Positions 3,426 through 23,403 of a DNA stretch of 64,000 nt are shown in pieces; the first letter of the stretch is position 1, and the number at the start of each line of letters is the position of its first letter. Below the pieces are notes generated by a model. It ran no database searches. It was not told the origin of the DNA and was given only the letters and a program-made list of their open reading frames with translations. Position numbers and translations under genes: made by a program. Source of the stretch: Candidatus Woesearchaeota archaeon (GTDB taxonomy: Archaea; Nanobdellota; Nanobdellia; Woesearchaeales; GW2011-AR4); assembly GCA_016185755.1 (NCBI GenBank), contig JACPMX010000010.1:3863-67862 (forward strand). Direction: 5' to 3'.

Positions 3426-4352
3426 CTATTGTTTTTTAGGGATATAAGCTGCAAACTTCACAACCAAAGGCCTTTCCTTCATCATTCCGTCTGTCTTGTC
3501 ATAAGCCATTATCTTGAAATCCTTCTTTTCAGCGCAAAGCCTGTAAATGCTCTTAGGATTTATGCTGCAGCTTTGGAGCTTGCTTATTTCAACAGGCTTG
3601 TTGCCGGCATCCAAAATAAGGCCGTCCTTTGGATTTTTAAGGTTGTCATTCTCCTGCTTGGCAAAGATTATGGAATTTTGCCCTTTGTAAAGGACGATCT
3701 TTTCCACTGGACCGGGGCCTTCATAGTTGCCGCTTGCGTCATTGAAAAATAGGTTAATATTTGGTGTTCCGTATTGGTTGTAATGGAATACATACCTCGC
3801 TGGTGACCATATTGAAATTCCATTTGTACCTATATCCTGCGACGTCCCGGCATCTGATTCTATCTTTATTTTCTTAAAGCTTGCCTCTTCAAACTTGAGC
3901 TCAAAGTTCTTGTTCAAAAGCCCATAATCCTCTATCTGCCATTTTGTCAATGAGAACTCCTTAGTGCATATGCAATTATTGCTGCCGGAATCAATGCAGT
4001 CCTGGAAGAACTCTGCAAATTCGTAAAGGACTTTTTCAGTCCCTTTGTCGCAGTTCAATGACCATGCAAAAGACTTGTCATTATCATTAATTTCATTCAG
4101 GCACAGGTAAATGTCTTTTTCCTTGGCGCAGCTTGAAATAGAGGCAAATGATTCCTTTATCTTCCTGTAATCATCCAGGCCATAATCAATCTTTGCCCTG
4201 AACGAAGGGTTTATGGAGTAAGTCCCGAGCAGATTGGAATCTTTCTGCCCTGCTGCAACAGCCCCGGTTATTTTATTGGCATCAGTATATACGACAAGCC
4301 CCATCAACAGCGCCGGGATCAGCATCAGCAAAAAAAGGTCTTTTGCTTCCAT
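3426..4352 (-). CDS. secreted hypothetical protein
   Basis: 308 aa. N-terminal hydrophobic signal/anchor LFLLMLIPALLMGLVV. Cys-containing. Last gene of the surface cluster. Confidence 0.5.
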   Translation of the reverse strand: MEAKDLFLLMLIPALLMGLVVYTDANKITGAVAAGQKDSNLLGTYSINPSFRAKIDYGLDDYRKIKESFASISSCAKEKDIYLCLNEINDNDKSFAWSLNCDKGTEKVLYEFAEFFQDCIDSGSNNCICTKEFSLTKWQIEDYGLLNKNFELKFEEASFKKIKIESDAGTSQDIGTNGISIWSPARYVFHYNQYGTPNINLFFNDASGNYEGPGPVEKIVLYKGQNSIIFAKQENDNLKNPKDGLILDAGNKPVEISKLQSCSINPKSIYRLCAEKKDFKIMAYDKTDGMMKERPLVVKFAAYIPKKQ

Positions 4353-4353
4353 T

Positions 4354-5475
4354 TTATGATATTGCCCTTACCTCCTGTCCTGTTTTCTGCTCGAGAGCGA
4401 CTGCCCTGTTGTACCTGTCAGTTCCGCAGCATTCGTAATGCCAAAGCTCTGCAGAATATCTTCTGAAGCCTGCCTTGTACATTACCCCTTCAAGCTCTTT
4501 CCAGTCTGCAACCGTCATTGTTTTTTTGAACCTGACATCAACGGCTTTTCCGCTCATGTGCGGGCATGAAGCAAGCCCCTTATTGGGATTGCAGACATAC
4601 TTTGCTCTTTCCGCATCAGTTGGGAATCTTTGCGCGTATTTTTCAGGAGTCCTTCCTTCCCACAGGTCTCTTTGCTCCTGCTCAGACCTGAAAGCTGAAT
4701 AAACCTCAAGTTCTTTCCCTTTTTCCTTTGCAATCCTTTGCGCATCGGCTGCTTTTTGGTAAGCTTCTAATGTCAGCCTGCATTTGATTCCTTTTGCGCA
4801 CAAATTCTCGTCGCTAAAGTCCTTGAAGCCTGAAATCTCCTGCAGAGTGGGCATCTGCTCCGGGCCGATTATTCTTTTCTCTTCTTTGGGAATTCGCTTC
4901 AGCGTCTCTTCTTTCTTCTTTATGCTTTCATCCTTCAGAATCTCAAATTTCAATGGATCTTTCGAAATACCGATAATTTCTGTGCTGCCCCTTATGTCAT
5001 AGATATAGTTGTTAAGCTGGATTTCTGAAGGGTAATTGGCAATGTATCCGCTGAATTTTTCATTGAACTGCAGCTCAAGGTTTAATTTTATTTTATTCTC
5101 GCTGAAGCAGTCAACACCTTTGTCATTCCATAGGAAATAGCCGTAATATTTTCCGCACTCTTTAATTGGAGAATGCAGGGTTGGGTGCTCTCTTGGAGTC
5201 AGGATTTCGCTTGCATAAACCTCGCTTAATCCCCCGTCTCTCGCAAGGTCGTAAACTGCCTGCTGCAAAGAATACTTTGCTGACTGGTCGATGTAAAACA
5301 AGGCTCCCTCGGCTTTCATGTAAACTTTGAGCAGTGTGAATTGCCTGTCTCCGATCGGGGAGCTGGAAAACGTCCCTGTCTTTGACAAAAGAACAATAAA
5401 CAAGTAAATCAGGATTAATGATGACAGAATAACCAGTAAAGGCAGGAAAAAAAATGATGCTTTTTTATTTTTCAT
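4354..5475 (-). CDS. membrane-anchored peptidase M15 (VanY / D-Ala-D-Ala carboxypeptidase-like) domain protein
   Basis: 373 aa. N-terminal TM segment. C-terminal domain has CPHMSGKAVD (the H-x2-G-x-A-x-D zinc-ligand motif) and ELWH (E-x-x-H), the VanY/M15 signature. Confidence 0.6.
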   Translation of the reverse strand: MKNKKASFFFLPLLVILSSLILIYLFIVLLSKTGTFSSSPIGDRQFTLLKVYMKAEGALFYIDQSAKYSLQQAVYDLARDGGLSEVYASEILTPREHPTLHSPIKECGKYYGYFLWNDKGVDCFSENKIKLNLELQFNEKFSGYIANYPSEIQLNNYIYDIRGSTEIIGISKDPLKFEILKDESIKKKEETLKRIPKEEKRIIGPEQMPTLQEISGFKDFSDENLCAKGIKCRLTLEAYQKAADAQRIAKEKGKELEVYSAFRSEQEQRDLWEGRTPEKYAQRFPTDAERAKYVCNPNKGLASCPHMSGKAVDVRFKKTMTVADWKELEGVMYKAGFRRYSAELWHYECCGTDRYNRAVALEQKTGQEVRAIS

Positions 5476-5966
5476 TTTAGAGGTATATTTTTGGTTGATG
5501 GCTGGGCTATGTCTGATTTAAATGCGACTTCTATCGCTGCGCCATATGCTGGGACAGAGATGACATTTTCAGAGCATCCAAAATGCTGCAGGCTTGAGCA
5601 TCCCCTGCTCTTGAGCTTTTCTCCGTCTATGCAAAAAATGCTGCATTTATTTCCGAAATAATCATCCATGATCTGCATTATGCTCTTTTCAGCTAATTGA
5701 TTTTTCGAGCTGTCAAATCTTGACAATGCTATAAGCTCTGCTATGCTCATTTTTGAGTTGTTTATTTCGACTGGTGTCTTGAGTATATTTATCAAAGAGA
5801 TTGTGTCTGCAACATTGCCTGATTCTTCTGGTATCTGAAAAGTGGCTTTTCCAAGTGTAAGCTTTATCAGCAGGTAAAACACCAGGATGACGAAAGCGTA
5901 GGCTAGGATGGAAAAAAAGTCAAGGAATCCCATTCCCTTTTTTCTAGTTCGGCAAAACTGCATCAA
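5472..5966 (-). CDS. class-III-signal-peptide-like (pilin-like) membrane protein
   Basis: 164 aa. N-terminus RTRKKG/MGFLDFFSILAYAFVILVFYLLI: basic stretch, Gly, then a hydrophobic helix with an acidic residue at +5. This resembles prepilins. Confidence 0.45.
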   Translation of the reverse strand: MMQFCRTRKKGMGFLDFFSILAYAFVILVFYLLIKLTLGKATFQIPEESGNVADTISLINILKTPVEINNSKMSIAELIALSRFDSSKNQLAEKSIMQIMDDYFGNKCSIFCIDGEKLKSRGCSSLQHFGCSENVISVPAYGAAIEVAFKSDIAQPSTKNIPLK

Positions 5967-6459
5967 CAGTAAGCACCCCTTTTTTTATATTATCTTTGTC
6001 TTTTATCAGAACGTAAAAGTTTGTTGAAAGCCCCCTTGCAGCGCCCTCCCCGATTAATTTTGCTTCAACAAGCACTTTTTTCTCTTTATAGAGTGGCTCA
6101 TTGTAATAGGTGGTGTACACATCACCTGACTCAATATCTTCCAGCTCAAGCTTCGCAGATGCCTCCGAATTTACGCTGCCGTAATAAATTGAGTTCAGTA
6201 TGCTGCTTTTGAATTCTTCCGATGAGAATTTTTCCAGGTCTATTGTTCCGATGTACTGCCTTTTAATCTCATCATCAACATGGCTGATATCCTTTGACAG
6301 CAGCAAGCTATGCGTCAGCAATCTTGATTCTGTCTCGAAAACATCTATTTTTTCCTTGATGGCTGCATTTGCAACCAGTGTGATGGAGTAAAACACGAAA
6401 ATTGCAAAGATTATCCTAAAAAAGTTCAGTATGTCGTCCATTGATGCTGTTTTATTCAT
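5944..6459 (-). CDS. N-terminally anchored hypothetical protein
   Basis: 171 aa. TM helix IIFAIFVFYSITLV near the N-terminus. Overlaps its neighbours by 8 and 23 nt, so translationally coupled. Confidence 0.4.
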   Translation of the reverse strand: MNKTASMDDILNFFRIIFAIFVFYSITLVANAAIKEKIDVFETESRLLTHSLLLSKDISHVDDEIKRQYIGTIDLEKFSSEEFKSSILNSIYYGSVNSEASAKLELEDIESGDVYTTYYNEPLYKEKKVLVEAKLIGEGAARGLSTNFYVLIKDKDNIKKGVLTVDAVLPN

Positions 6460-6901
6460 TCCTGCTCACTTTGATTTTTCCTTCGGATTTGGAAAACCTG
6501 AAAGACTTGGCGCCTGCAACAGAATATTTCTCTGTATCAGCATGATTTCTTCCATAATGGTAGTTCTTTGGCATGCCTTCAGCGCCTATCCTTATTGTCG
6601 GTGTTTTGTCATCCTCATACTCTGTGATTTGCAGATTGAATTTTGACAAATCAAGCTTGTTAAAAGAATATTCATAGTCAACATTGCCGGGCGCGCTGTA
6701 GAGAGTGTTCATTAAAAGCGCAATATCCCTGCTCAGAAAAATGTTCTGGAATCCTGTATCGTTCTCTATGGACTTTACATATATTACCATCAATACAACC
6801 ACAAAAAGAAGCAGCGCGGCCATTGCAATATGAATCAGCATCTGCCTTATGGTAACTTGGCTTTTTTTGCTTGAGAAATGCAAAACTGCTCTTTTTTTCA
6901 T
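6452..6901 (-). CDS. N-terminally anchored hypothetical protein
   Basis: 149 aa. TM helix IAMAALLLFVVVLMVIYV after a basic N-terminus. Confidence 0.4.
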   Translation of the reverse strand: MKKRAVLHFSSKKSQVTIRQMLIHIAMAALLLFVVVLMVIYVKSIENDTGFQNIFLSRDIALLMNTLYSAPGNVDYEYSFNKLDLSKFNLQITEYEDDKTPTIRIGAEGMPKNYHYGRNHADTEKYSVAGAKSFRFSKSEGKIKVSRNE

Positions 6902-6935
6902 AATTATTCTTTAGAATTGCACTTTAAATGCTTTT

Positions 6936-7724
6936 CTAATGAGTTGTTCCTTGAGCGCCAGCACCGCCAATAGCTCCGCCGCTTGGCTTAAAATCGCTTT
7001 TTTTGTTTAATTCTCCGATTACAATGAAAATATTTTCCCCTTCCCTGATTTTGTCAAGAGAAACCTGCTTTATTCCCCAGCTGCTGCGCCAGAAGCCGCC
7101 GCATATTCCGTAAAGCACGAGATAATTGTAGCTGGGCCACCTGTTCGAGCTCGGCTTGGCATTGGCTTGGGTGCCGAAAAAATTTGAGTCTCTTGTTGAT
7201 GCCAAAAAGACTATTTTTTCTTCGAATGGCTTGCACTTTACCGGTGCTGCATCCCCTTTAAGGTCAAAATCATTTCCAGACCAGTCTGTTATGCCGCCTG
7301 TGTTTTGGTAGATGCACAGGCATGACTTTGACTGGCATAATTTCGGCCTTGATGTAATTATGCTTTCCCCTGTGCATTCTGTCCTAACCCCATTATCATT
7401 ATAGCTAAAGCCCGCAAGTATGTAGTCATCTGTAATGCTGTACACTGTTGTTTGTGTTGTCACAGCTTTTCTGTCGTTTGCAAGCTCTTTTACCCTGTTT
7501 GACAATGCCTCAAGGTTATTAACTGTTGACTGGTACTCCTGGCCGCTGAGAAAAAGGCCGCTGAGCCTTAAGATGTAATAAAACAATACAGAAAGTATTA
7601 TTATTCCAGCTATAATCTCGATCAGAGTCCATAAAGAAAGGTCTATTATTGATCTTTTGCCTTTGAAAAAAGGTATTTTTGGCATTTCATACCTTGGCAA
7701 CAGGTGCGGCACCGCCTTCAACAC
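6936..7724 (-). CDS. N-terminally anchored secreted hypothetical protein
   Basis: 262 aa. KGKRS then LWTLIEIIAGIIILSVLFYYIL, a pilin-like N-terminal helix. Gly-rich C-terminus. Confidence 0.4.
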   Translation of the reverse strand: MLKAVPHLLPRYEMPKIPFFKGKRSIIDLSLWTLIEIIAGIIILSVLFYYILRLSGLFLSGQEYQSTVNNLEALSNRVKELANDRKAVTTQTTVYSITDDYILAGFSYNDNGVRTECTGESIITSRPKLCQSKSCLCIYQNTGGITDWSGNDFDLKGDAAPVKCKPFEEKIVFLASTRDSNFFGTQANAKPSSNRWPSYNYLVLYGICGGFWRSSWGIKQVSLDKIREGENIFIVIGELNKKSDFKPSGGAIGGAGAQGTTH

Positions 7725-8118
7725 ATCTTCGGTCGCTTGTCATGACAAAATTATCGCAGTCCCTTGCAATCTTGTCATTGTCATTTTTATCGCAGCTTCT
7801 TGGCACATCATCACCATCGCCGTCATGAGTAACATCATTATTCTTGCATCCTGCATCAGAACATACACACGGGTCGCAGTCATCCTTAAGCCCATCTCCA
7901 TCCCTGTCATTGGATTGTGTTAGTACCAATCCCCTTTCCATTGCCCTTTGGGTGTCAAATCCGCATCTCGCGAGCGCTGCCTTGTAAAGCTCAGAAGCGG
8001 TTATTCTTGCAGCTTCTGAGGTAGGCCTTCTTATGAGATTAGTGCCTGTAATCAGGACGAGCACTCCTAAAACAAGCAGTACTATAAATCCGATTCCAAT
8101 AGCCTTTTTATTCATCAT
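7687..8118 (-). CDS. pilin-like protein with thrombospondin-type-3-like Ca-binding repeats
   Basis: 143 aa. N-terminus MMNKKAIGIGFIVLLVLGVLVLI looks like a class III signal. DRDGDGLKDDCD and HDGDGDDV are Asp-rich Ca-binding loops. Confidence 0.55.
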   Translation of the reverse strand: MMNKKAIGIGFIVLLVLGVLVLITGTNLIRRPTSEAARITASELYKAALARCGFDTQRAMERGLVLTQSNDRDGDGLKDDCDPCVCSDAGCKNNDVTHDGDGDDVPRSCDKNDNDKIARDCDNFVMTSDRRCVEGGAAPVAKV

Positions 8119-8119
8119 T

Positions 8120-8374
8120 TCAGCCTCTTAGCGGGTTAATGCAGCATACTTCCTTCTGAGCATTATCTTTTTCAGGGCATGTAAATTCGGTTTTTTCGTA
8201 TTGGCAGCTAGATTCATCAACACATTCTCCGTTCTTGGACTCGCAGGAGAAAGCAGCCTTGCTAAATCCTCCTGATGCATTGCCAAGCATATATATCAAA
8301 ATTACAACTGCTATCAAGGATATCGTTGCTATCACAATTATGTTTATTGGCAATCCCTGCGCTTTTCTTTTCAT
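8120..8374 (-). CDS. class III signal peptide (type IV pilin-like) protein
   Basis: 84 aa. MKRKAQG/LPINIIVIATISLIAVVIL followed by a small Cys-rich globular part. Confidence 0.6.
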   Translation of the reverse strand: MKRKAQGLPINIIVIATISLIAVVILIYMLGNASGGFSKAAFSCESKNGECVDESSCQYEKTEFTCPEKDNAQKEVCCINPLRG

Positions 8375-8619
8375 TTTAAATTAAAAATAATAAAGCTTGG
8401 TAATGTGATAAGCCTGCCAGCGTTTATTATTAAGTTTTTTGTCTTGCCTGGTTCTGGGGTCTTGTCCTTATCAAAGTCAATTGAGCCATATGATGTTCCT
8501 ATCCCCAAAAGCTGTTTTATATAGCCCCCAAAAAATATGGAAATCAAAAAAGCAAGTATTGCTAATATAAGCAGTATAACCCAGAAAGGTACTCCGCTTC
8601 CCTGGCCTTTTCTGTTCAT
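8371..8619 (-). CDS. class III signal peptide (pilin-like) protein
   Basis: 82 aa. MNRKGQG/SGVPFWVILLILAILAFLI. Confidence 0.55.
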   Translation of the reverse strand: MNRKGQGSGVPFWVILLILAILAFLISIFFGGYIKQLLGIGTSYGSIDFDKDKTPEPGKTKNLIINAGRLITLPSFIIFNLK

Positions 8620-8822
8620 GTGAATGCGCCACCAATCGCTTTTCCAAGATTTGCCATCCTGACGCTGATAGGGCCAATCCCAAAATACAGCAATATTATA
8701 AGCAAGATTACCGCTCCCGCTACCCCAAGCGCAAAATAGTTTACATCAGCTTTTCTGTTTTTCATGTTTTTCATTTGTTTTGCCTGCAATATAAATAATT
8801 TATTGTTTGACCGGTATTTCAT
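8616..8822 (-). CDS. small membrane protein
   Basis: 68 aa with a single TM helix ALGVAGAVILLIILLYFGI. Overlaps both neighbours. Confidence 0.3.
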   Translation of the reverse strand: MKYRSNNKLFILQAKQMKNMKNRKADVNYFALGVAGAVILLIILLYFGIGPISVRMANLGKAIGGAFT

Positions 8823-9696
8823 TGCAGTTCAGGCTCTGCAGGCTTTCTGCATCATACGGGATAAAAGACAGAAATGCGGCGTGCTCAAAAGGAACCCCGC
8901 TGAAATACGCCGCGAACCCGGCCCAATAAGTCCCCCCGACAATCATTGCTCCGCCGGTTAGGGAGATAAAAGTTCCTACTGGAACTCCAACAAATGGTGT
9001 TAAGAAAGCTGAAATCACCCCTCCGGCGCCGATGCCAAGCTTGACAACAGCAAATCCAAGGGCGACAGTTCCGACAGCAGGGGCAGTGTATTTTGTTTTT
9101 TCCCAGTAATTTTTGATTTTTTCCTTGCCTTTGATGTAAGTGAATACAACAGCATACTCATTATTTACAGAGGCATCAATCACATCCTCAATTTTCCTGT
9201 TGCCAAGCGAGGCCAGATATTTAGAATACTCCGATTCACCGGGCTTTTCTGTAGTGAATAGCTGCAGATAGTTCAATTTCTCATTTTCTGGATGTGCATT
9301 GCTGAGATAATCTGTGATGCCCTTTACCTTGATGTCTTTGTTAAGGGTTATTCTTGTGCATATTGTGCAGTATACATTGTCGTCTGAAAAAAGCTCCAGC
9401 TTTCCCCTGCCATACTTGTCCCAGCAGTCAAACATCGACGAGGCTATCTGACCCTTGACTGCATTTTCGTCTTTGTCATCTATCTTAAGCTCGATTTTAG
9501 GGCAGTTTATTTTCCCTGAAAAATCGGCATATTTCAGCTTCAGCCTTGAATGGGTAAGCACGCTTGTCTTGCATATCTGCTTTTCAGCTGCCTTGTTATA
9601 AGCCTCTTTGAGGCTTGCCCACGATGTGGCTGCGACAAAAAGTATTAATATAAAAATAACCACAAAAACGAATCCGTAGTTAATTGTATTGTCCAT
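8800..9696 (-). CDS. membrane-anchored secreted protein, paralog A of a tandem pair
   Basis: 298 aa. N-terminal TM. Shares CP(K/R)x(E/N)(L/I)KI and (D/L)CW(D/Y)K motifs with the adjacent 9698-10474 product. Gly-rich hydrophobic C-terminal segment. Confidence 0.5.
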   Translation of the reverse strand: MDNTINYGFVFVVIFILILFVAATSWASLKEAYNKAAEKQICKTSVLTHSRLKLKYADFSGKINCPKIELKIDDKDENAVKGQIASSMFDCWDKYGRGKLELFSDDNVYCTICTRITLNKDIKVKGITDYLSNAHPENEKLNYLQLFTTEKPGESEYSKYLASLGNRKIEDVIDASVNNEYAVVFTYIKGKEKIKNYWEKTKYTAPAVGTVALGFAVVKLGIGAGGVISAFLTPFVGVPVGTFISLTGGAMIVGGTYWAGFAAYFSGVPFEHAAFLSFIPYDAESLQSLNCNEIPVKQ

Positions 9697-9697
9697 A

Positions 9698-10474
9698 TTA
9701 GTTCATTAAAATGTCGCATTCCTCTCTGATTTTATCCTGCTTGCCCAGGCCTATGTAATAGGCTGATGTGTAAGCCTCTGTCTGCTCAACCAGCCACGTA
9801 GGCTTCATCGCCAGAAAATAGATTAAATATCTGCTGTTTGTGTCAAATTTTTGGTCGTCTATTTTTCCAGTTTTTCCGTGTCCATATGGAGTATACTGGG
9901 TCCAGCCGATGCCGCCCCATAAAAGGTACAGATTTCTTTGTGACCTTATCAGATACTCGAAATAGCTGATGGCTTCGTTTGGAATTTTGCTTGATTTAAG
10001 GTAATCATCAAGGCCTTCAAACATTCTTCCTCTTAATTTTTCATCAAATTCTATCTCTGAGCAGATTAGGCACTGGTAATATTTAGAGTCGCTGAAAAAG
10101 ATTGACTGCTCGAGAACGTTTCTGTTGCCTTCTGCCATTTTGTACCAGCAAAGCCTGAGCTCCTCTGCAGCTATTTTGTTTACTTCCTCTTGTGTTAATT
10201 TTCCAAAGCTGTATTTTTTAGAAGTCTTTCCATTCAATTCCACTTTATTTTCAAAGATTTTAATATTTCTTCTTGGGCAGTCAAGCTTTACAACGCTTTT
10301 CCCGAAAAACTTGGTTTGTGCCTGCGCCAAAACGCTCAGCCTGCATGTATCTACATCTGCATTTTCTTTAAGTTGGCCGGCAGTTGAATATGCGAAACTG
10401 AACAAAATTAGGGCGCCGGCCATGACTATTATCAGAACGACCAAAACCTGCGGCTCTACTCCTCTTTTGTTCAT
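9698..10474 (-). CDS. membrane-anchored secreted protein, paralog B of a tandem pair
   Basis: 258 aa. N-terminal TM VLVVLIIVMAGALILF. Conserved Cys spacing matches paralog A. Confidence 0.5.
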   Translation of the reverse strand: MNKRGVEPQVLVVLIIVMAGALILFSFAYSTAGQLKENADVDTCRLSVLAQAQTKFFGKSVVKLDCPRRNIKIFENKVELNGKTSKKYSFGKLTQEEVNKIAAEELRLCWYKMAEGNRNVLEQSIFFSDSKYYQCLICSEIEFDEKLRGRMFEGLDDYLKSSKIPNEAISYFEYLIRSQRNLYLLWGGIGWTQYTPYGHGKTGKIDDQKFDTNSRYLIYFLAMKPTWLVEQTEAYTSAYYIGLGKQDKIREECDILMN

Positions 10475-12960: not shown

Positions 12961-12969
12961 TTTGAAAAG

Positions 12970-13458: not shown

Positions 13459-13459
13459 A

Positions 13460-16400: not shown

Positions 16401-18538
16401 TGATTGCTTGTGAATATTTTGTCAAGGGCTTTTAGGCCGTCTGTCACATTGATGCTCAATATTCTCGGCCCGCCTGTTGTGCTGTGGGCTTCTATCAGCA
16501 GTTTTTTTGCCTCTCCGATGTTTTTTGCAGGGTCTTGGGAATAATACCTCAGTACATTTGTGCCTTCGTTCAATGTGGCAAGCTTGTCCCCGTTGCTGCC
16601 GTCAAAAACATTGAGATTGCTTACTATGGCAATCCTGCCTGTAGTTGAAGTGTTGTAAGGGTGCCCGCCTGCACCGCAAGGCTCGATGCAGAAAAAAGTA
16701 GCGTAGTCCTGCGATGTCTTTAGTATTACGGAGCTGTTGATGCTCGTCCTGTCGTAAATCTGTATGATAAGGCTGTCTATTATCCCTTTCTTGATTATCG
16801 GGAGCAATGTGGTGTTTGGGGCAAAGAAATCAGCCTCGCATGAGCTTGTTGTGCAGTCAGCTTTTGCGTCTCCGTCCGCGTTCTTGGAGCAAGCGCTGTT
16901 TATATTCTGGCATACTTTTATGCCGCACTCATCAAGTGACGGGTTTGTTATCCTGTTGTTTTCGTCATGAGTTATTTGTGCATTGCTGCACTGCTCTGCA
17001 TCATAGTCTTTGCACACTACCTCCTCGCAGTTTTTTGATTTTCCGTTGCGGAAATAGCACATGAAGCTGCCTTCAGATAACGCGTTTGATTTTTCCCTTG
17101 TGCAGAAGTCAAAAACCTCGTTAAATGACCTTAAGTTTTCCAAAGATTGCGTTCCCTTTTCCTCGCACCACTGGCAGTTGTATTCTGTTGTGCTTACGCA
17201 TGCCCCTATCCCGATCTGCTCGGCCAGTTTCTTCCACTTGCAGCCGCCGACCCTGCAGTTGTCCCTGCCGCATGCGTCTTCTGTCTTGTAGTCATAGCAG
17301 CCCATTGAGGGATCGCAGCCGAAGCATGAGTTTACAGCAGAGTGCGACCTGTCATAAAAACAGTACCTGTTTGATTCGCAGTCGTCAAGATTGTAAAACA
17401 GCCCAAACGGGTTCGCTGCATTGTAATTGCAGCTGACCTTGCTCAGGCATGAAGGCTTGTTGTTGCTCACAATGCATATCTGTGTTGGCAGGCATGCCGT
17501 GCCCTCTGCTATGAGCCTGTTTGAAGCGTCGCAGGAGAATGCCTTGTTGAACTTATCGCTGAATTTGTTTTTCACGCCCTGCTGGAAATTTTTTAGGAAT
17601 AGCTCGGGGAAGTTTGTGTTCAGGTAATTACTGTATCTTGTATAGTATGATTCATGTATGCAGAAATTGTTGCTTGCAGGATGGTCCATGCATTCTACAT
17701 TGCCCAATGTGGATGTTTTTGTTATTGTGGGGGTTGCGGTCTGCAGGTTGTACCTTGCCTTGATTTGGTAGGTGTATGTTGTGTCAAACATCAGGTCTCC
17801 TGAAGAGTCCTCAAAAGAATTTGTGTTTGTTATTCCTGCCATAGCGAAGTTTGTGCAGCCGCTGTCCTTGCACCTCATCACATCATATGAGACTGCATTG
17901 CTGCTGCACTCGTCTTTCCATTTAAGCTGGAATTTTTTTTGCCCTTTGGCCGGGATTATTTCAAGATTGCTCAGCTTTGGCAGGTAGCTTGGATTGCTGC
18001 ATCCTACTCCTTCAATAGAGCAGCTCCCCCCTGATTCAGCGCTGTCTGCAGGGCTTGTACACCCAAAATCACCTCCTTCAAAATCAGCGCAGCCATTATT
18101 GTCGTTGTCTATTCCGTCGTTGCACTGCGGCACCGGGCAAACCTGGTTGCAGTTTGTCTGGCCTTTGTTGAACGTCAATCCAGTTCCTTTGCACTGGGCT
18201 TCCGGGGCAATCGAGCCGCCGAGCTCTGAGCAGCAGCAGCCAAGAGAGCACGCGTCAACAGCCAGGCATGCCTTGTTTGGGAAAAAGAATGTTGTTGAGC
18301 AGTCATTGTAGTTTGCAGGTCCATCGGGATTTTGCTGCGACTTGTAATATCCCGGGAAGCTTGTTTCAGGCTTTGGGCAGCATTCTTTGTCCCTTAAAGC
18401 AAGCCTGTCAGCGGAGCATGCAAGCTGGCCGGCACCGGGATTGCTGCAGCATCCAACTTCATCGGCATAAACAGCCTGCAGGCTAATTAAAAATAAAAAA
18501 GCTGAAAATACAATCGCCTCTTTTTTTAATCTTGTCAT
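13460..18538 (-). CDS. giant Cys-rich type I membrane surface protein (adhesin-like) with thrombospondin type 3 Ca-binding repeats
   Basis: 1692 aa. Sec signal peptide MTRLKKEAIVFSAFLFLISLQAVYA. Three repeats of about 95 aa ending in IDLT(I/P)P. Three Cys-rich modules each opening DVDCG(G/S)xC. TSP3-like DTDGDGIPDEWE, DSDSDGLTNLEE and DTDKDSFTDKEE. C-terminal TM VLAFAIGIILLLSGFGYL, then a Lys/Glu/Gln-rich tail of about 130 aa. Confidence 0.8.
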   Translation of the reverse strand: MTRLKKEAIVFSAFLFLISLQAVYADEVGCCSNPGAGQLACSADRLALRDKECCPKPETSFPGYYKSQQNPDGPANYNDCSTTFFFPNKACLAVDACSLGCCCSELGGSIAPEAQCKGTGLTFNKGQTNCNQVCPVPQCNDGIDNDNNGCADFEGGDFGCTSPADSAESGGSCSIEGVGCSNPSYLPKLSNLEIIPAKGQKKFQLKWKDECSSNAVSYDVMRCKDSGCTNFAMAGITNTNSFEDSSGDLMFDTTYTYQIKARYNLQTATPTITKTSTLGNVECMDHPASNNFCIHESYYTRYSNYLNTNFPELFLKNFQQGVKNKFSDKFNKAFSCDASNRLIAEGTACLPTQICIVSNNKPSCLSKVSCNYNAANPFGLFYNLDDCESNRYCFYDRSHSAVNSCFGCDPSMGCYDYKTEDACGRDNCRVGGCKWKKLAEQIGIGACVSTTEYNCQWCEEKGTQSLENLRSFNEVFDFCTREKSNALSEGSFMCYFRNGKSKNCEEVVCKDYDAEQCSNAQITHDENNRITNPSLDECGIKVCQNINSACSKNADGDAKADCTTSSCEADFFAPNTTLLPIIKKGIIDSLIIQIYDRTSINSSVILKTSQDYATFFCIEPCGAGGHPYNTSTTGRIAIVSNLNVFDGSNGDKLATLNEGTNVLRYYSQDPAKNIGEAKKLLIEAHSTTGGPRILSINVTDGLKALDKIFTSNQKPAIDVQFFEPAAITHSRLVNKKTGLIVTLQAGAELNIKASFSVAETLPNGEYTLELDAKNKNNIFMDPAVSQIIVIDNSKPLLEITPPDGSIVNTSAVNIKLAFDKEVSLESAKINSEEIKQSFSTIDNKAFTATLNISDGNKNLEVTASDFARNRATGSVSFVVDANPGVISLLKPRFGVAPKSVFDVVAETDNDASCRFSLDNNFEFEFMEPFTNTSGTIHTILGFSKIASGDANAHKLNIRCKDQKGITFKSFDINVDPTIPQLKSAFAFPNPIIEEPFETAFAVESDEPVRCKFSTTTKEFANMEGKFEGFDEGNFKLISRQPITAGNGSSHTYFIACENRAELVSDAKEVQIKIDLTIPISIISHTPEFFNSTSAILAIETNKKSQCKFSETDNTAQNGDIFGAPGYSHTRQLSSTAGKHTFYVVCKDQFLQKFSDVKQVEFTIDLTPPAILSINDSSSLQDKPEFTFSTDVLRVKWNSIDNESRVISHVYSIVESGTSRVVLNNTKSLLNNEYVIATRPNGTSLGLLNGNRYLFRVKAQNIAGLSSNISESDGITVDTSLKPLNCTNGIKDEKEPDVDCGSGCDLCITGKKCSINSDCVSNFCNSGICSAPKCDDNAKNQEESDVDCGGQCRKCEINKACSSSNDCDSGFCSFGFCKPQESCSDSKLSPGESDVDCGGHCPSKCPEDKSCGINEDCGEGLQCILSACKRCQSNDANCNGIPDEQESAGIKDTDGDGIPDEWEIKNNFDPNNPNDSGLDSDSDGLTNLEEFNVQRTYGESTNPNAADTDKDSFTDKEEIDAGTSPVNPDDFPKSSFAKVLAFAIGIILLLSGFGYLAHKAITKRKAEKFEMPKGEEHPKPIFQPQQQAKQTIQKQEDANIREALKKKEQQKEQERAKLFEPFGAPRAAEKTIKEQPKESKETKKPEQKKPKEDAISKLAQIAKKDKQRQPSAKPKDNIGKLYELAKSKSKRKK

Positions 18539-19719
18539 ATTCTATTGACAGTTACTGTCTGGTAATCCGAAAGGCTGCCGTCGCTGGCTTCGACCCTGAA
18601 ATTGATTTGCGGAATTTCAAGTTTTTTCGGCAATGAGGGGGTTATGGTGAAAGTAATGTTGTCCTCGTCAGGATCCTCCGCCTTCAGCCGGTAATTATCT
18701 AAAAGATCATCTTGTTTTATTTCAAAATTGTGCGGAAATTCAAGTGTGCCCTTCCTTATGTAATAAAGTGCCGGCATCCTGTTCCTCCTTGCAAAAATAT
18801 ACTCGAGCGGCTTTCCGTAAACCAGTGATTTGGCATCTTCTACAATTATGATGTCATCATTGGAAATTTCATTTTTCCTTGTTTTAACTTCAAAAAAATC
18901 CTTGCTGTTTTTTGCATCGCTTATGTCAAATTTTATGTTTTTGATGTCGTTTTCAATCAGCTCTTTCGAAAAAAAGTAAAGGTCCCTGAGCCTTACGCCA
19001 GCATTTGCCGAGAATTCATTCATCTCCGCAAGCTCATTTGTTGCAGGGTTCCTTATTGTTATGGGCATTTTTGTCCTTATGCTGACATCGCCGCTTCCTA
19101 TAGTCACTTCTGTCTTCGAGGGCTGCACCTCAATTTCCAGGCCCTGTTTTTCAAAAGGCTCAAGATTAGCGCAGCTTTCCATGTTCTTGTCAATGAATGA
19201 TTCTATCTGCACCTGGATTGAGTTTGGCCCCTCGGAAGAGTTCAGCGGCGGCATGTTGCTTATCCCGAAAAACCCGTCAAAAATTTCTGCATTTGAAGCT
19301 GCTGTCCTGTAAGGGAATGCCGCCCATGGATAGTCCGGGGCATCTGATGCGTACGGCGCCACCGCAAATTTTGGAGGTAAAATATTATATGCCACTTTGA
19401 AATTGTTGTGGTTGGCAAAAAAAATTCCCTCGTCAGTATCCTGGTAGTCGACCAAAGTTCCGCCCTGGCTCGCATATATGTATCCCCCCTGCCTGCCGAG
19501 CAAAATTATCGCGTCCTTTGCAAGCTTGTCAATGCATTTTGCGGCAAATTCCTTGATCGGCTGCACTTCAGCTGCTGCGTCCTGCGTCCTTTTTATGTTC
19601 TGCTGGCTTTGCTTCCTGACAGCCGATTTTGACAGGTACAGGGCAAGGCTGATCGCGATGAAAATAACCAGGCCTACAATGAGCAGCATCGTGACCTGTG
19701 ACTTCAGCTTCAGCCTCAT
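18535..19719 (-). CDS. N-terminally anchored secreted protein
   Basis: 394 aa. TM VTMLLIVGLVIFIAISLALYL. Overlaps both neighbours by 4 nt. Confidence 0.6.
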   Translation of the reverse strand: MRLKLKSQVTMLLIVGLVIFIAISLALYLSKSAVRKQSQQNIKRTQDAAAEVQPIKEFAAKCIDKLAKDAIILLGRQGGYIYASQGGTLVDYQDTDEGIFFANHNNFKVAYNILPPKFAVAPYASDAPDYPWAAFPYRTAASNAEIFDGFFGISNMPPLNSSEGPNSIQVQIESFIDKNMESCANLEPFEKQGLEIEVQPSKTEVTIGSGDVSIRTKMPITIRNPATNELAEMNEFSANAGVRLRDLYFFSKELIENDIKNIKFDISDAKNSKDFFEVKTRKNEISNDDIIIVEDAKSLVYGKPLEYIFARRNRMPALYYIRKGTLEFPHNFEIKQDDLLDNYRLKAEDPDEDNITFTITPSLPKKLEIPQINFRVEASDGSLSDYQTVTVNRI

Positions 19720-22097
19720 TTCAACCTCAGCTTTGAAGTCAAATCAGGCCATATTGTCTCGGGATTTATATTCGTGAACTGGCTGCCCTGGACAAGAACA
19801 TAATAATTGTTTCCTTCTTTCTTGCACGATATTCCTGATGACACATCTTTCTTCGCCTCGCTGAACTGGTCCAGGAAATTGCATACATCCACGTCAAAGC
19901 CCGAGTATTCAATAACTGCATTCTTGAACCTTGCCCCTTCTATTGTTCCCTTTATTGTCTTGCCGCTGTCCTGTGAGATATAGAGCTTGTCAAATTTATT
20001 TACTCCTTTTAGGTATGACTCGTCAAATGGCGGGGTTGTCACGAGCCTTTTTATTGAATCTATTATATTCCTGATGGGGCCGCCTATAAGCTCGCTGAAA
20101 GGGCCGGATGAATCCTGCCCGGAAGGCACTGTTATTGCGCTTGCGCTGTAGATGAGGCTCTTAAGCTTCTTGTTAAACCACACCTTGTTCGTTGGGTCGC
20201 AAGGGTGGTACTGGCCGTCATCAATCAGGGCATCATCGCAGCTTTCCACTCCGAATATGTTCAGGCTGTCCCCTGTGATTTCCGACAGGTTTTTGTTTAT
20301 GGATGTGGCTGCCGCTATTTTGCTGCCGGTTTTCAAAACGCAGAAATTATTTGATTTGAGGCTTGACAGGATATTTGTTGCTGCAGCATTGGATTCAGTG
20401 AGGTACTGGAGGTCGTTAAGCGTGTTTTCCTTGTTGTCGCAGGAAAGCGCAAAGTCGCCGCTCTTCATTTCCAGCAGCTTCATGGCCAGCAATTTTGTCC
20501 TTGTGGACCATGCTCCGTTCTCGCAGAAATTATCGTCAAAATAGTCTCCTGATTCCAGGCATTGTGTTCGTTCCTCTTTTCCAAAAACATTTGCAAGGCA
20601 TTGTGATTTCTTCGGGCAGAATCCTGAAGCCCCGTCATCAACAGTAAATCTAAGCTCCGATTCTGTCCACTCGCCGTCAATGCACCTGGAGTTTGCGCCT
20701 GTCGGCTGCGCCAATGGATCGTCTCTTTGGTTTTCGGCGCATTTTTCACCATCCCAGCATTCTTCTGCAGCGCAGCAGTCTGCGGCTTGCTTTGGATTTT
20801 GGACTGGTGCAAAGCTGACATGCGCCTTGTCCGTGCCGTCAGTTTGCATCCATTTTTCAGTGTATGAGCAATAATAGTTTTTTCCCGGGTCATTGAAGCA
20901 GTATTCGTGGTTTGTTATCAATGCTGCTCCGGTATGCTTGTCAGCGAGGCTCGATAAGCCGTCATTATTCTTATTGAAATTATTTTTATCAACTGCGCAG
21001 CCATGGAATTCCCCGTTGAAATTCACAACAGACTCTTCGGTGCCTTCAACAAAAGAAACACTTATGACTGGCTTCTTGTCAAAGCATCCGCCTGTCCCTC
21101 CAATGTCATTATAGTTCTCCCCAGGGTCATCATCCTCGCTGCAGCATTTTGTGCCAGTCCATGTGAACCCTGCCTTCTCGCATGTTGCCTTGTTTTTTCC
21201 TATTAGTGTCTTATCTTTGATTTGTGAATTTGGAACATCCAAATCAGTGACAAATTTCCTGTCTGAGCGGCAGTAATAGGTTTTTGCATCATTTGTTGAG
21301 ACTGCATTTGCCGTTATTTCATTTGCAACAGCATTGCCTGTGATTTCATCACGATTTGCAATGGTTTTTTGGGCTGCCTCGTTCTCGGATTTCTCCGGGT
21401 TTACAGATTGCCCTGTTGAGAGCCTTTTCCCGTCAACCCTTGATTTGCATGAGCCGTCGCCGCAGCATTCTACAACTGATTCCCTTCCTTTTCCGATGCA
21501 TACGTACTCGCTGTTACCGATTGTTCTTCTCCAGAATGTGCCGTCGCACTTAATCCAGTTGACTCCGTCAGACAGGTATTCTATTCCTGCGCAGCCTACA
21601 AACCTTATATCCCCCAAATTCGGGGTTGAAGGCAGCCATTGCGCAGATTCTGCGTTTGAATCTATATTGCACAATACCCCTGAGCTTACCTTGCCGCAGT
21701 CTTCTGCATCGTCGCCGCAGCATTTTGCCTTTGCGTTCCAGTCTGTTCCGGCAATGCAGTTGCACGCGCCGCTTGAGTCATCAGGATTGCTTTCCTGAGG
21801 CACTGACTCTGAAACGCCTCTGCAGTCGCAGCCATCGCCTCTTTTGCACTTATTTTCCGGAAGAAAATATCCAAAATCTGCTGGGCCTAATTCTCCGAAT
21901 CCCGCTTTTGCGTCGCCTGTTTTATAGCAGCCTGCGCTCTGTACCGGGCATGGAGGTGGAGGTGGCGGACTTCCCCCTCCTCTTCTTCCCCTTCCTCCCC
22001 CTGCCTCAGCGAAAATTGAAAAAGATGCAAATAGTATTATTGCAATGCATAAGATAGAATAAATCCTAGAACACGTATTATTCTTGCTGCCCGTCAT
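19716..22097 (-). CDS. Cys-rich secreted protein
   Basis: 793 aa. Signal peptide, then a GGGRGRRGGGSPPPPPPCP linker. More than 50 Cys. No C-terminal TM. Confidence 0.7.
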   Translation of the reverse strand: MTGSKNNTCSRIYSILCIAIILFASFSIFAEAGGGRGRRGGGSPPPPPPCPVQSAGCYKTGDAKAGFGELGPADFGYFLPENKCKRGDGCDCRGVSESVPQESNPDDSSGACNCIAGTDWNAKAKCCGDDAEDCGKVSSGVLCNIDSNAESAQWLPSTPNLGDIRFVGCAGIEYLSDGVNWIKCDGTFWRRTIGNSEYVCIGKGRESVVECCGDGSCKSRVDGKRLSTGQSVNPEKSENEAAQKTIANRDEITGNAVANEITANAVSTNDAKTYYCRSDRKFVTDLDVPNSQIKDKTLIGKNKATCEKAGFTWTGTKCCSEDDDPGENYNDIGGTGGCFDKKPVISVSFVEGTEESVVNFNGEFHGCAVDKNNFNKNNDGLSSLADKHTGAALITNHEYCFNDPGKNYYCSYTEKWMQTDGTDKAHVSFAPVQNPKQAADCCAAEECWDGEKCAENQRDDPLAQPTGANSRCIDGEWTESELRFTVDDGASGFCPKKSQCLANVFGKEERTQCLESGDYFDDNFCENGAWSTRTKLLAMKLLEMKSGDFALSCDNKENTLNDLQYLTESNAAATNILSSLKSNNFCVLKTGSKIAAATSINKNLSEITGDSLNIFGVESCDDALIDDGQYHPCDPTNKVWFNKKLKSLIYSASAITVPSGQDSSGPFSELIGGPIRNIIDSIKRLVTTPPFDESYLKGVNKFDKLYISQDSGKTIKGTIEGARFKNAVIEYSGFDVDVCNFLDQFSEAKKDVSSGISCKKEGNNYYVLVQGSQFTNINPETIWPDLTSKLRLK

Positions 22098-22188
22098 AGT
22101 ACCTCTTTTTTGGTTTTAAAGTATGTCAAATATAGGTTTATACTCCAATATCTCCTATTAAAATCTTTTGTTTTTAAATATATGGCAA

Positions 22189-23403
22189 TCACCTGGCAAG
22201 GAATGTTGCTATCTGGCTGGCTGCTCTTGCCGTTTCATTGTTTAAATCCTGCTTTGGGAGAAGCTCCTGTATGTCTCCAAGAATGGTGATGTTGCCATTA
22301 GAAGTTCCAAATTTTATGCCATTTACCGCTGCCTGATATTTGATATGTCTGATGTAATGTTTAATCTCAATTGGCTCAAGCCCCTCTGAAAACCCTTCTT
22401 CTGATTCGGCAAAGCTAGGCTGGCTTCTGTTTTCAAACCTTATTGATGCTATTGCAGGGGCGAGTATGGAGTATTCAAACCCAGCATATTTGGTTGGAAG
22501 CACATCCAGGTCCACACTTATCATTATGTTTGTGATACCTGCTTCCCTCATGTTTCTAATGCTGCCTGACAAAACCGGTTGCCATTTTCCATCCGCTAAG
22601 TTCTTGTCAGAGTATATTTCCATTATCTTGAAAATGTCGTATCTTGTGAAATCCTGGCCAACAGAATATTGTGCCCATTGCTTTGCAGCCTCTGAAGCTC
22701 CAAGAAAGACGATGTAATCTGCATACCCCTCTATGAGCAGCTTTCCAAATATATTTTCTTTCCCTACTATGTTTTCCTTGTCTCTGGTGCCGTATATGTC
22801 AACATGCTCGTCAAAAACGATTATCCCTATTTTTGCGTTTGGATTGATTTCTTTTGCTGCCTTGAAAGTCAGGAGAGACAATCCATGGTCCGTGCCAATG
22901 AATATGTAGCTGGAATATTTGCCTGAAATTAATCTCTTTATGCATGCTGTGATTTTTCCAGCAAATTCCTCAGTTGAGTTGTATATTTCAGTGTCCTTGA
23001 GCATCAATTCTCTGTAATCAGGGCTGCATTCCTCTGCGCTGTACTGCATGATCAGCCTTGTGGTGTTTTCCAAAGAAGAGATGTTGTATTGTATATTCAC
23101 CCTTTCTTTTATGTTTTCAATTTCAGGTTCTCTTGTTTCAGCATCAGGGTTCTGAGCGTGCACTTTAGAAAGCTGCCGGAAGCTCTGCAGCAGGAATTTG
23201 TCGTCTATGTTTTCCGTTATCTTGCCGCTAGCTGCAATATAATCCCGTATATCCCCGGCATATTCAAGGTTTTTGCTCATTGGTTCCTTTTCAAGGCTAA
23301 TCCATACTACAGAAGAAGTTTCTGCAGTATTTTCAGTGATGAATTGCCATGCAAACAAAAGCAGGAAAAATAAAAATGCCAGTGCACATTTGCTGATTTT
23401 CAT
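22189..23403 (-). CDS. secreted arginase/agmatinase-fold (ureohydrolase superfamily) protein
   Basis: I place the start at the internal MKISKCALAFLFFLLLFAWQ signal; the ORF track extends to 23442. IGTDHGLS, FDEHVD and SVDLDVL match the three Mn-binding arginase-family motifs GGDHS, DAHxD and SxDxDxxDP. About 170 extra residues at the N-terminus. Confidence 0.5.
   Translation of the reverse strand: MKISKCALAFLFFLLLFAWQFITENTAETSSVVWISLEKEPMSKNLEYAGDIRDYIAASGKITENIDDKFLLQSFRQLSKVHAQNPDAETREPEIENIKERVNIQYNISSLENTTRLIMQYSAEECSPDYRELMLKDTEIYNSTEEFAGKITACIKRLISGKYSSYIFIGTDHGLSLLTFKAAKEINPNAKIGIIVFDEHVDIYGTRDKENIVGKENIFGKLLIEGYADYIVFLGASEAAKQWAQYSVGQDFTRYDIFKIMEIYSDKNLADGKWQPVLSGSIRNMREAGITNIMISVDLDVLPTKYAGFEYSILAPAIASIRFENRSQPSFAESEEGFSEGLEPIEIKHYIRHIKYQAAVNGIKFGTSNGNITILGDIQELLPKQDLNNETARAASQIATFLAR

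Follow-up and report, generated by a model that had tools for sequence, protein, structure and literature searches.

Woesearchaeota, whose cells are tiny, are among the most abundant and diverse of the DPANN archaea, and we know of no cultivated member and of no known host for any of them. Here we describe an array of genes for anchored and secreted proteins that lies on a 64,000-nt stretch of contig JACPMX010000010.1 of Candidatus Woesearchaeota archaeon (hereafter the window, meaning this whole stretch). All of the array except its first gene belongs to a block of conserved content and order, which brings together proteins with pilin-type leaders, giant adhesin-like proteins and a murein hydrolase.

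A conserved gene array in Woesearchaeota

The window is a piece of archaeal chromosome, as seen from its genes for RadA, an RPA-like protein, RNase P p30, TBP, MCM, PolD DP1/DP2 and Orc1/Cdc6, together with a ribosomal-protein operon and genes for SecY, PheRS and transketolase; tRNA and Rfam scans of the window gave no matches. On its minus strand, 21 open reading frames (ORFs) occupy positions 3426-23403, and we number these G1 to G21. The protein encoded by G6 is identical to HYX08_03995 of a Candidatus Woesearchaeota metagenome-assembled genome (MAG). A first-pass annotation of this DNA had described 21 coupled minus-strand genes, each coding for a product with a signal peptide or an anchor, and its coordinates, its gene junctions and the N-terminal hydrophobic segments (present in all 21 array products) were confirmed. 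Most of the junctions are overlapping or abutting, with 4-nt overlaps at 19716-19719, 18535-18538, 11499-11502, 8371-8374, 8616-8619 and 5472-5475, an 8-nt overlap at 6452-6459, and 1-nt gaps at 13459, 9697, 8119 and 4353. These overlaps suggest operon organisation and translational coupling, rather than co-translation as such, which is what the annotation had taken from them.

The outline of the array requires revision both at G1, which lies outside the conserved block (see below), and at the junction between G9 and G10. A 22nd gene that had been missed lies in the 208-nt "gap" separating G9 from G10: a mini-ORF of 49 amino acids (aa) on the minus strand at 10476-10625 (MVRINNIQIFNSKKAFEINLRTLFYILAALFTVGVMGFIILRAMNIIFK), the product of which begins with the leader SKKA/FEINLRTLFYILAALFTVGVMGFIIL (here and below, a slash in a leader marks the putative cleavage site). 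ORFs of 40-53 aa are found at this position in about 20 of 48 related loci, and in two of these (L006 and L007) there are gene calls of 47-48 aa. Pfam and NCBIfam together name just three of the window's array products: G1, G4 and G20. Comparison of the array products with one another recovered the tandem paralogue pair already noted in the first pass, G10 and G11 (E=1.7e-8), and added a second pair, G9 and G14 (E=6.6e-9).

We assessed conservation in a sample of 80 related loci around G6, 45 of which have enough downstream DNA for the later genes to be sought, and followed the spread of G6 itself using GTDB contigs from one genome per species and a profile search of 1.84 billion proteins. Relatives of G6 were identified in at least 216 GTDB species genomes, and the profile retrieved 1,742 representatives of 50%-identity clusters; among the best 150 matches listed, nearly all are full-length, at about 320-380 aa. 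The best 80 G6 genomes are nearly all labelled Woesearchaeota, Nanoarchaeota, Nanoarchaeia or, wrongly, 'Methanosarcinales'. There are 187 close homologues of G6 (54-77% identity) and 302 homologues of G7 (the best 120 of these at 69-97% identity), and G5 is 72-77% identical in three relatives.

This analysis revealed a gene order that is kept in tens of species: G2-G3-G4-G5-G6-G7-G8-G9 (1-3 copies)-G10/11 (1-2)-G14-like-(G15)-G16-G17-G18-G19-G20-G21. The first occurrences of these genes are colinear in 66 of the 80 loci; G7 and G8 are present in all 45 loci with enough downstream DNA, and G16-G20 in 30-34 of the 45. The front part of the block, G2-G9, shows 50-77% identity between species; G10-G19 diverge rapidly and retain their leaders. 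The chromosomal flanks are likewise fixed in several species, with RNase P p30, TBP and MCM on the upstream side and RPA on the downstream side. The first-pass annotation had staked its reading on co-occurrence of the array in related genomes, and conserved order is what we found there.

Some of the records that hold the block bear titles from other lineages. Many third-party MAG records are titled 'uncultured Methanosarcinales archaeon' (L008, L016, L017, L020-L022 and others; 30-69% identity), Dehalococcoidales is the title of one record (L044) and Binatia that of another (L082), and two G2 relatives are labelled Aenigmarchaeota (P0318 and P0320). Off-lineage titles of this kind are probably wrong taxonomic labels or binning errors; the Aenigmarchaeota-labelled cases alone might mean a wider distribution.

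Many small unannotated membrane proteins encoded one after another in a single direction, accompanied by a lysin-like enzyme, also recall an integrated virus or mobile element that carries structural proteins. The block, however, occupies the same slot, from RNase P p30/TBP/MCM to RPA/RadA, in several species; Pfam scans returned no integrase, terminase or capsid matches; none of 2.9 million IMG/VR contigs holds a relative of G6; and there is no compositional break. We regard a mobile-element origin as effectively refuted by these four lines of evidence, and give it next to no weight.

The limits of the block follow from the behaviour of its first genes in relatives. G1 (22189-23403, minus strand) encodes a signal-peptide-bearing arginase-fold protein, with a match to PF00491 (47 bits against a cut-off of 22) and with the DEHVD and SVDLDV metal-binding motifs (D-x-H-x-D and D-x-D), which scores below the equivalog cut-offs of hutG, arginase and agmatinase. 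The first pass had counted this secreted arginase-fold enzyme as part of the array; the fold stands, while membership does not, since the slot varies in relatives. One relative has nothing between RNase P p30 and G2, and two have instead a divergent S-adenosylmethionine (AdoMet) decarboxylase and spermidine synthase pair (L132, 7953-9886; L133, 7917-9850). As G1 is not conserved in these relatives, we define the block as G2-G21, at 3426-22097 (about 19 kb), and treat G1 as its neighbour. The polyamine gene pair found in the same slot suggests that G1 may belong to polyamine metabolism, as an agmatinase-like gene, despite its N-terminal hydrophobic segment. G2 can be unlinked from the block: in one relative (L135, GCA_016185945.1) G3-G21 directly follow RNase P p30, and the G2 homologue stands alone on contig JACPMR010000011.1 among GatCAB and tRNA synthetase genes.

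Promoter elements were read directly from the intergenic sequence. An element resembling a transcription factor B recognition element with a TATA box (BRE/TATA-like), (C/G)(C/A)ATATATTTAAA, is repeated in front of G1, G2, G9, the mini-ORF/G10 and the RPA-like gene (sites at approximately 23420-23440, 22170-22185, 11005-11020, 10640-10660 and 3400-3420), and looks like the promoter consensus of the organism. The 91-nt gap upstream of G2 (22098-22188, minus strand) contains the BRE/TATA-like GCCATATATTTAAAAA together with a Shine-Dalgarno-like GAGGT, and is a candidate promoter for a G2-G8 unit. Similarly, the intergenic region upstream of G9 (10965-11031, minus strand) contains the BRE/TATA-like CCGATATATTTAAATA and a Shine-Dalgarno-like AGAGG, making it a candidate for a separate promoter of this small pilin-like gene. 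Because such elements lie in the larger gaps, several transcription units are likely rather than one, and those to be expected are G2-G8, G9, and the mini-ORF/G10-G21.

Leader motifs and the glutamine at +1

The block is marked by the N-termini of its products. We scored a class-III-like leader as [KR], an optional spacer and [GAS] followed by a hydrophobic stretch, within 8 residues. By this rule the motif is present in 14 of the 28 minus-strand ORFs inside the array. On the plus strand of this DNA 2 of 43 ORFs have it, as do 17 of 192 ORFs outside the array, nearly all of the latter being spurious or having it far from the N-terminus. Chance is thereby excluded as the source of the enrichment. 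A short basic leader followed by a small residue and about 20 hydrophobic residues is found in 14 of the 21 window products; where the first pass had spoken of at least eight prepilin-like proteins, the class-III-type N-termini are real and the count rises to at least 14. G2, G4 and G21 lack the motif and have ordinary signal peptides or anchors. An LPxTG, PGF or PEF motif with a terminal transmembrane (TM) segment is found in none of the 21 products, and the possibility, raised in the first pass, that the short proteins are sortase or LPXTG substrates therefore fails, as C-terminal sorting signals are absent and the leaders are conserved.

Across the 80 loci, the leader is conserved in orthologues of G3, G5-G10, G14, G16, G19 and G20. 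Four of these families have an almost unvarying glutamine at +1, which is found in all 33 motif-bearing orthologues of G3, in 59 of 62 for G5, in 75 of 75 for G7 and in 68 of 70 for G8; in the G9/G14 orthologues the figure is about 68%. In the window, Gln at +1 is found in G3, G5, G7, G8, G9, G13, G14 and G17. Position -1 varies only among G, A and S across the leaders, and the consensus for G6 is KK[AG]/FEIQFNW. When the profiles of G7 and G8 were compared with one another, only KKxQ and the hydrophobic stretch aligned. Since these unrelated families are alike only at their N-termini, the constraint appears to act on the leader itself, as it would for a peptidase site. Judged from the alignments, an invariant +1 Gln in unrelated families is explained by a peptidase recognition site and not by the positive-inside rule. 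A precedent is found in Methanococcus maripaludis, where the substrates of the prepilin peptidase EppA have leaders of 5-13 aa and Gln at +1 (PMC3875500); the window leaders match this pattern in being short and basic and in having Gln at +1.

The larger and better conserved of the pilin-like genes lie in the front part of the block (all genes described in this and the next paragraph are on the minus strand). G3 (18535-19719) encodes a 394-aa product with the leader KS/QVTMLLIVGL, and the C-terminal consensus of its family has, by eye, the look of a cadherin/He_PIG-type Ig domain. G5 (12970-13458) codes for a conserved pilin-like protein of 162 aa (KA/QIYSQVFIYIL), and G6 (11965-12960), which serves as the marker of the block, for a highly conserved one of 331 aa (KKG/FEVQFNWLFVLVAG). 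G7 (11499-12011) has candidate starts at GTG 12011 and ATG 11999 and yields a conserved pilin-like protein of about 155 aa in mature form (KS/QIQIGETIAVLF); the product of G8 (11032-11502), also conserved, has 156 aa, 6 Cys and the leader RKA/QMEILGLAIVVV. These are followed by the small Cys-rich pilin-like protein of G9 (10683-10964; 93 aa; KKA/QGISINVIIIAAIALAVLVVLF), of which G14 (8120-8374; 84 aa; RKA/QGLPINIIVIAT) is a Cys-rich paralogue of similar type. Taken together, members of the G9/G14 family are present several times in each genome, typically 2-5 times in the related loci, and G9 is our candidate for a major subunit.

The remaining genes are more varied. G10 (9698-10474) encodes a pilin-like protein of 258 aa (KRG/VEPQVLVVLIIV), and its tandem paralogue G11 (8800-9696) a protein of 298 aa with an N-terminal anchor. 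Residues ~204-253 of G11 form a Gly-rich, hydrophobic, glycine-zipper-like stretch long enough for about two membrane spans, which is absent from G10. G12 (8616-8822), of 49-68 aa depending on the start chosen (RKA/DVNYFALGVAGAV), and the pilin-like G13 (8371-8619; 82 aa; RKG/QGSGVPFWVILL) have no recognisable orthologues. The pilin-like G15 (7687-8118; 143 aa; KKA/IGIGFIVLLVLG) carries, behind its pilin-type leader, TSP3-like Asp-rich and Cys-rich repeats similar to those of G4. G16 (6936-7724) encodes an anchored protein of about 249-262 aa (KGKRS/IIDLSLWTLIEII) and was found in 34 of the 45 loci with enough downstream DNA, and G17 (6452-6901) a pilin-like protein of 149 aa (KKS/QVTIRQMLIHIA). 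The product of G18 (5944-6459; 171 aa) is N-terminally anchored, and the hidden Markov model of its family cross-matches members of the G7 family, which suggests that G18 may be a distant paralogue of G7. G19 (5472-5966) encodes a pilin-like protein of 164 aa (RKKG/MGFLDFFSILAY), the motif of which is present in 32 of 32 orthologues. The last gene of the block, G21 (3426-4352), codes for a Cys-rich protein of 308 aa that is secreted or anchored; its orthologues range from 260 to 620 aa, some being fused to G20 and two containing Fn3.

Adhesins and an exchangeable murein hydrolase

Two of the products without the leader motif are very large, and both appeared in the first-pass annotation under descriptions that hold good. 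G2 (19716-22097, minus strand), the first gene of the block, encodes the 793-aa Cys-rich secreted protein, a Sec-secreted product with 42 Cys and a poly-Pro stretch after its signal peptide; in some species its relatives contain LamG, pentaxin, He_PIG, PKD or Hint modules. G4 (13460-18538, minus strand) encodes the adhesin-like type I membrane protein of 1692 aa, which has a signal peptide, 84 Cys, a TM segment at 1530-1560 and then a Lys-rich tail of about 130 aa. Its Ig-like and TSP3 matches all fall below Pfam cut-offs in the window copy; G4 orthologues, at 1600-3100 aa, contain Big_13, Big_3_3, invasin D3 and TSP3 domains, and no SLT domain was found in the G4 relatives scanned. From their domain content, the giant Ig/TSP3 protein G4 and the modular, lectin-bearing relatives of G2 fit a function in contact.

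About a dozen G2 orthologues (for example L134 10001-13015, which is P0246, and P0253, P0254, P0256, P0262 and P0265) have a Hint (mini-intein-like) domain of about 145 aa straight after the signal peptide, which is absent from the window G2. We rejected the idea of an insertion inside G2, as the domain is located between the signal peptide and the mature N-terminus. The run CFLPGTLI...FFAEGFLAHN is followed by Lys, with no Cys/Ser/Thr nucleophile, such that the domain would cleave and not splice; it resembles a domain that excises itself from the N-terminal end of a secreted adhesin.

G20 (4354-5475, minus strand; 373 aa) couples a class-III-like leader (KKA/SFFFLPLLVIL) to an enzyme. A conserved N-module of about 230 aa is followed at 233-373 by a VanY/M15 zinc peptidase, which scores 26.5 bits on VanY (gathering cut-off 25), contains the zinc motifs H-x6-D (HMSGKAVD) and E-x-x-H (ELWH), and matches the NCBIfam D-Ala-D-Ala dipeptidase model at E=2.2e-12, below the equivalog cut-off. 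An N-module of about 210-230 aa is common to all 32 proteins found at the G20 position, some of which are fused to G21. The domain that follows is exchanged between species: counting the members that match each Pfam family, so that counts may overlap, there are 15 with VanY, 12 with Peptidase_M15, 3 with M15_3, 3 with M15_2, 3 with SLT and 2 with Amidase_2, and there are further matches to M23, 3D, lysozyme-like and C39_2. The membrane-anchored M15 peptidase of the first pass is hence correctly named for the window, and is one variant of a swappable murein-hydrolase module. That different murein-cutting chemistries are swapped at one operon position argues for selection on murein hydrolysis, and the repeated replacement points to bacterial cell walls as the target, a conclusion that was not part of the first pass. 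Murein hydrolases of Woesearchaeota and Nanoarchaeota have earlier been interpreted as directed at bacteria (PMC8204110, PMC9723730, PMC12352652); our literature search found no account of Woesearchaeal murein hydrolases in an ordered operon or with pilin-type leaders. The catalytic domains at the G20 position are candidate archaeal antibacterial enzymes.

A murein hydrolase might also serve the archaeon's own envelope, in division or wall remodelling, by acting on a self-made murein-like polymer, in analogy to the specialised lytic transglycosylases of bacterial pili and secretion systems. The fixed position of the block among core replication and translation genes, and its near-universal presence in the lineage, would be in keeping with such a housekeeping role. 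Murein synthesis genes, however, were not found in the window or the flanks, the domains that replace one another (D-Ala peptidases, MurNAc-L-Ala amidase, SLT) attack linkages peculiar to bacterial murein, and the three published studies just cited treat the Woesearchaeal enzymes as bacteria-directed. We therefore consider this role very improbable.

Relation to type IV filaments

We lean towards reading G2-G21 as the structural block of a surface organelle related to type IV filaments (TFF), a pilus or a short pseudopilus, that makes contact with bacteria and would be specific to Woesearchaeota-type DPANN archaea. On this reading we infer that about 15 products would be made with class III signal peptides, and that a prepilin peptidase encoded elsewhere would cut them after G/A/S, exposing the +1 Gln in most of the conserved ones. 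An ATPase and platform of the FlaI/FlaJ type, also encoded elsewhere, would assemble the small, multi-copy G9/G14 into a fibre; the larger conserved pilin-like proteins G3 and G5-G8 would form a priming or tip complex, which would present the non-pilin adhesins G2 and G4. At the contact site G20 would cut the peptidoglycan of a bacterial partner or prey, and the fast-evolving G10-G19 would supply variable accessory or specificity subunits. These steps go beyond what the sequences show directly, namely the gene set with its synteny, the conserved leader, adhesin-type domains in G4 and in relatives of G2, and the exchange of murein-hydrolase domains at the G20 position. The first-pass annotation had likewise pictured a pilus or pseudopilus with minor pilins presenting giant adhesins, which the leaders and adhesin domains support and which the curated pilin profiles do not.

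The predicted structures are consistent with such a filament. AlphaFold2 models were generated from alignments of 28 sequences each. The model of G6 (mean predicted local distance difference test score, pLDDT, 76; predicted template modelling score, pTM, 0.74) has a helix at 3-55, followed by a beta domain (62-226) and, at the C-terminus, a bundle of helices; that of G7 (pLDDT 83) has a helix at 10-66 (57 residues), two short helices and four long antiparallel strands, with an alpha-beta loop between the N-terminal helix and the 4-strand antiparallel sheet. In both models, then, an N-terminal helix of 53-57 residues is followed by a beta domain; type IV pilins are built on this general plan, which searches for related folds did not confirm for G6 and G7. 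In a fold search the globular part of G7 resembled extracytoplasmic Cache/PAS sensor domains.

Several results weigh against a filament. TIGR02537 matches just 2 of 142 members of the block's families at E<0.1, and the Pfam pilin families PF04021 and PF07790 match none of these members and none of the array products. In the window, G8 reaches 17.2 bits on TIGR02537 (cut-off 20) and G16 12.7 bits on TIGR02532 (cut-off 16.3; E=0.09). Foldseek searches against the PDB gave nothing below E=0.04, and nothing was found by profile searches of PDB sequences with G3, G6, G7, G8 and G21 or by a single-sequence search with G2. G6 and G7, at 54-86% identity, are conserved far above what is usual for pilins, and the block's proteins do not keep the +5 Glu found in EppA substrates, Glu being at +3 in G8, at +6 in G7 and absent in G9. 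The assembly machinery is also missing from the neighbourhood: a secretion ATPase, a polytopic platform protein and an A24-type peptidase are absent from the large ORFs of the window, as the first pass had stated; scans for Walker-A and GxGDxK motifs within 10 kb of G6 in the 80 loci found no machinery, the matches (MCM, a ZIP-like transporter and similar) being rejected as such; and the region upstream of G2 in three relatives has housekeeping and polyamine genes and no machinery. Finally, He et al. (bioRxiv 2020.05.14.094862), working on the groundwater dataset to which this MAG belongs, reported DPANN to be missing the components of type IV pili. Pilin families and PDB folds thus remain unmatched and the leader motif stands, such that the assignment as 'pilin' draws on leader and overall predicted architecture, not on homology.

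The same results suit a non-filamentous envelope complex, in which the hydrophobic N-termini would be uncleaved signal anchors of bitopic proteins that form, with G2 and G4, a membrane-anchored attachment or feeding plaque and use no type-IV-filament machinery; this would be a surface machine of a new kind for DPANN. The failure of known pilin profiles and fold searches, the lack of linkage to machinery in 80 loci, the unusually high conservation of G6 and G7 and the report of He et al. would all be expected of it, as would the extra C-terminal hydrophobic segments of G11, the C-terminal TM segment and long cytoplasmic tail of G4, and the sensor-like globular part of G7. Such a plaque, however, would leave an invariant Gln after G/A/S in four otherwise unlike families, which the positive-inside rule does not explain, and the leader type is the recognition pattern of EppA. 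We consider it rather unlikely also in view of a canonical pilin in the window, which implies a class III peptidase, and of flaI, flaJ and flaK having been reported in the lineage.

This canonical archaeal type IV pilin/archaellin-like gene lies far from the array, at 53068-53559 on the minus strand. Its product, with the leader KKG/VSPLIATVLLIAFAV, scores 28.1 bits on TIGR02537, above the cut-off of 20, and is UpsA-like at E=1.8e-8; in 44 metagenome loci it retains 66-84% identity, which is unusually conserved for a pilin. The gene appears to form a two-gene unit with 52596-53066 (minus strand), which codes for a 156-aa protein and lies 1 nt downstream. A scan for machinery in the longer (at least 8 kb) of these 44 loci found none near the canonical pilin. 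The presence of this gene is indirect evidence that the genome encodes a class III signal peptidase, and the two leader types, G/VSP and [GAS]/Q, may parallel the division of labour between FlaK and EppA in Methanococcus.

For the filament-type organelle that we favour, distance from the machinery has precedents. The first pass had concluded from the missing machinery that the locus is non-canonical, which overstates the case, as a pilin locus set apart from its machinery is nothing unusual: in M. maripaludis the ATPase and two platform genes have a locus of their own, and pilin genes are in at least 4 places (PMC3875500). Scattered pilin genes and a separate machinery locus are also described in Makarova 2016 and in a TFF preprint (10.64898/2026.04.22.720090). 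In Woesearchaeota genomes flaI, flaJ and flaK have been reported (PMC5994134, PMC11606122), one of these two papers finding flaI/flaJ/flaK in 'most MAGs' and flaB-type genes among the most expressed.

Of known systems, the Epd pili of M. maripaludis, which are EppA-processed and belong to archaeal TFF 'system 1'/clade 1, share the short basic leader followed by Gln at +1. They too have many pilin-like genes of very different sizes, very small major-type subunits, adhesin-like proteins among the pilins, and an ATPase gene that lies, with two platform genes, away from the scattered pilin genes (PMC3875500; 10.64898/2026.04.22.720090). The block differs in having about 20 genes in fixed order with a murein hydrolase and adhesins of 800-3000 aa, and in lacking a peptidase gene, whereas eppA lies inside the epd cluster. 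Its leaders also depart from those of EppA-type pilins, with G/A/S at -1 where those have Gly, no conserved +5 Glu and no match to PF04021/DUF361. A second likeness is to the FimU-PilVWX-PilY1 genes of type IVa pili and GspH-I-J-K of type II secretion systems. These are 4-5 larger pilin-like genes in tandem beside a large non-pilin adhesin, with a separate small major subunit, and minor-pilin/PilY1 complexes are proposed to prime the fibre and present the adhesin (PMC7541494). No sequence or fold match to the block was detected, which has an archaeal leader without the G/FxxxE methylation motif and in which G2 and G4 are unrelated to PilY1. The block may work like known pilin-plus-adhesin loci, but it fails sequence-profile tests of membership among them.

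Modular type IV pilins and the Sulfolobus bindosome place an enzyme or binding module behind a class III leader on filament-type machinery (PMC8179133, PMC3047682); neither of them has a murein hydrolase that is exchanged between species and preceded by an N-module of about 230 aa specific to the lineage. The bindosome suggests a further explanation, that class III processing and a short pseudopilus embedded in the membrane serve only to anchor and arrange enzymes and binding proteins (G20, G3, G6 and G15) at the cell surface for scavenging bacterial wall debris, with no long fibre and no living host. Pilin-type leaders fused to functional domains (the G20 hydrolase, the G15 TSP3 repeats, the cadherin-like end of G3) and weak BasB profile matches in 9 of the 142 family members speak for such a display. 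We nevertheless give it little credence: Pfam scans found no substrate-binding proteins or transporters in the block, the giant Ig/TSP3 adhesin and the lectin-bearing G2 relatives fit cell attachment better than nutrient capture, and subunits of 90 aa that come in several copies, and may have their own promoter, have the appearance of a major subunit from which a fibre is built.

The use that we propose for the organelle, a specialised tip that recognises the surface of a bacterium where the cells touch, is the one proposed for the Myxococcus Kil Tad pilus and for the type IV pili of Saccharibacteria, in predatory or ultrasmall cells (PMC12075869, PMC9894109). Those are bacterial Tad or type IVa pili with linked machinery, whereas the proteins described here are archaeal and unrelated to theirs, and their function is proposed from sequence alone. 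In the same lineage, Castelle et al. 2021 described large extracellular SLT-domain proteins and the 'module 98' families (Woesearchaeota/Pacearchaeota), lineage-specific families of no assigned function, alongside murein-degrading domains proposed to act against bacterial hosts (PMC8204110). That study, PMC9723730 and PMC12352652 list families or enzymes and describe neither an operon of set gene order nor class III leaders nor the exchange of domains at a single operon position; a literature search found no description of the operon, its gene set, its fixed order or the exchangeable hydrolase slot.

A bolder and more doubtful proposal, which we put forward tentatively, is that the block encodes an undescribed organelle with which these archaea attack or tap bacteria. 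Its filament or plaque would consist of lineage-specific subunits alike only in their Gln+1 leader, with giant adhesins at the tip and an exchangeable murein hydrolase. If this were true, Woesearchaeota would live on bacteria across the domain boundary, as episymbionts or as predators, and would have a machine dedicated to breaching walls, and the core proteins G3 and G5-G8 would represent new pilin-like folds outside current TFF classifications. The block makes host interaction in Woesearchaeota testable, through a lineage-wide set of about 20 genes with cleavage before Gln as its signature. Furthermore, a survey that starts from established pilin profiles, or from loci linked to assembly machinery, can overlook large pilin-like systems in DPANN archaea; this may be why type IV pili have been described in print as absent from DPANN.

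Beyond the downstream end of the block, between the RPA-like gene and a 102-aa ORF at 1224-1532, two small minus-strand ORFs at 1874-2289, one of 68 aa and one of 70 aa, share 4 nt, in an arrangement that resembles a toxin-antitoxin pair.

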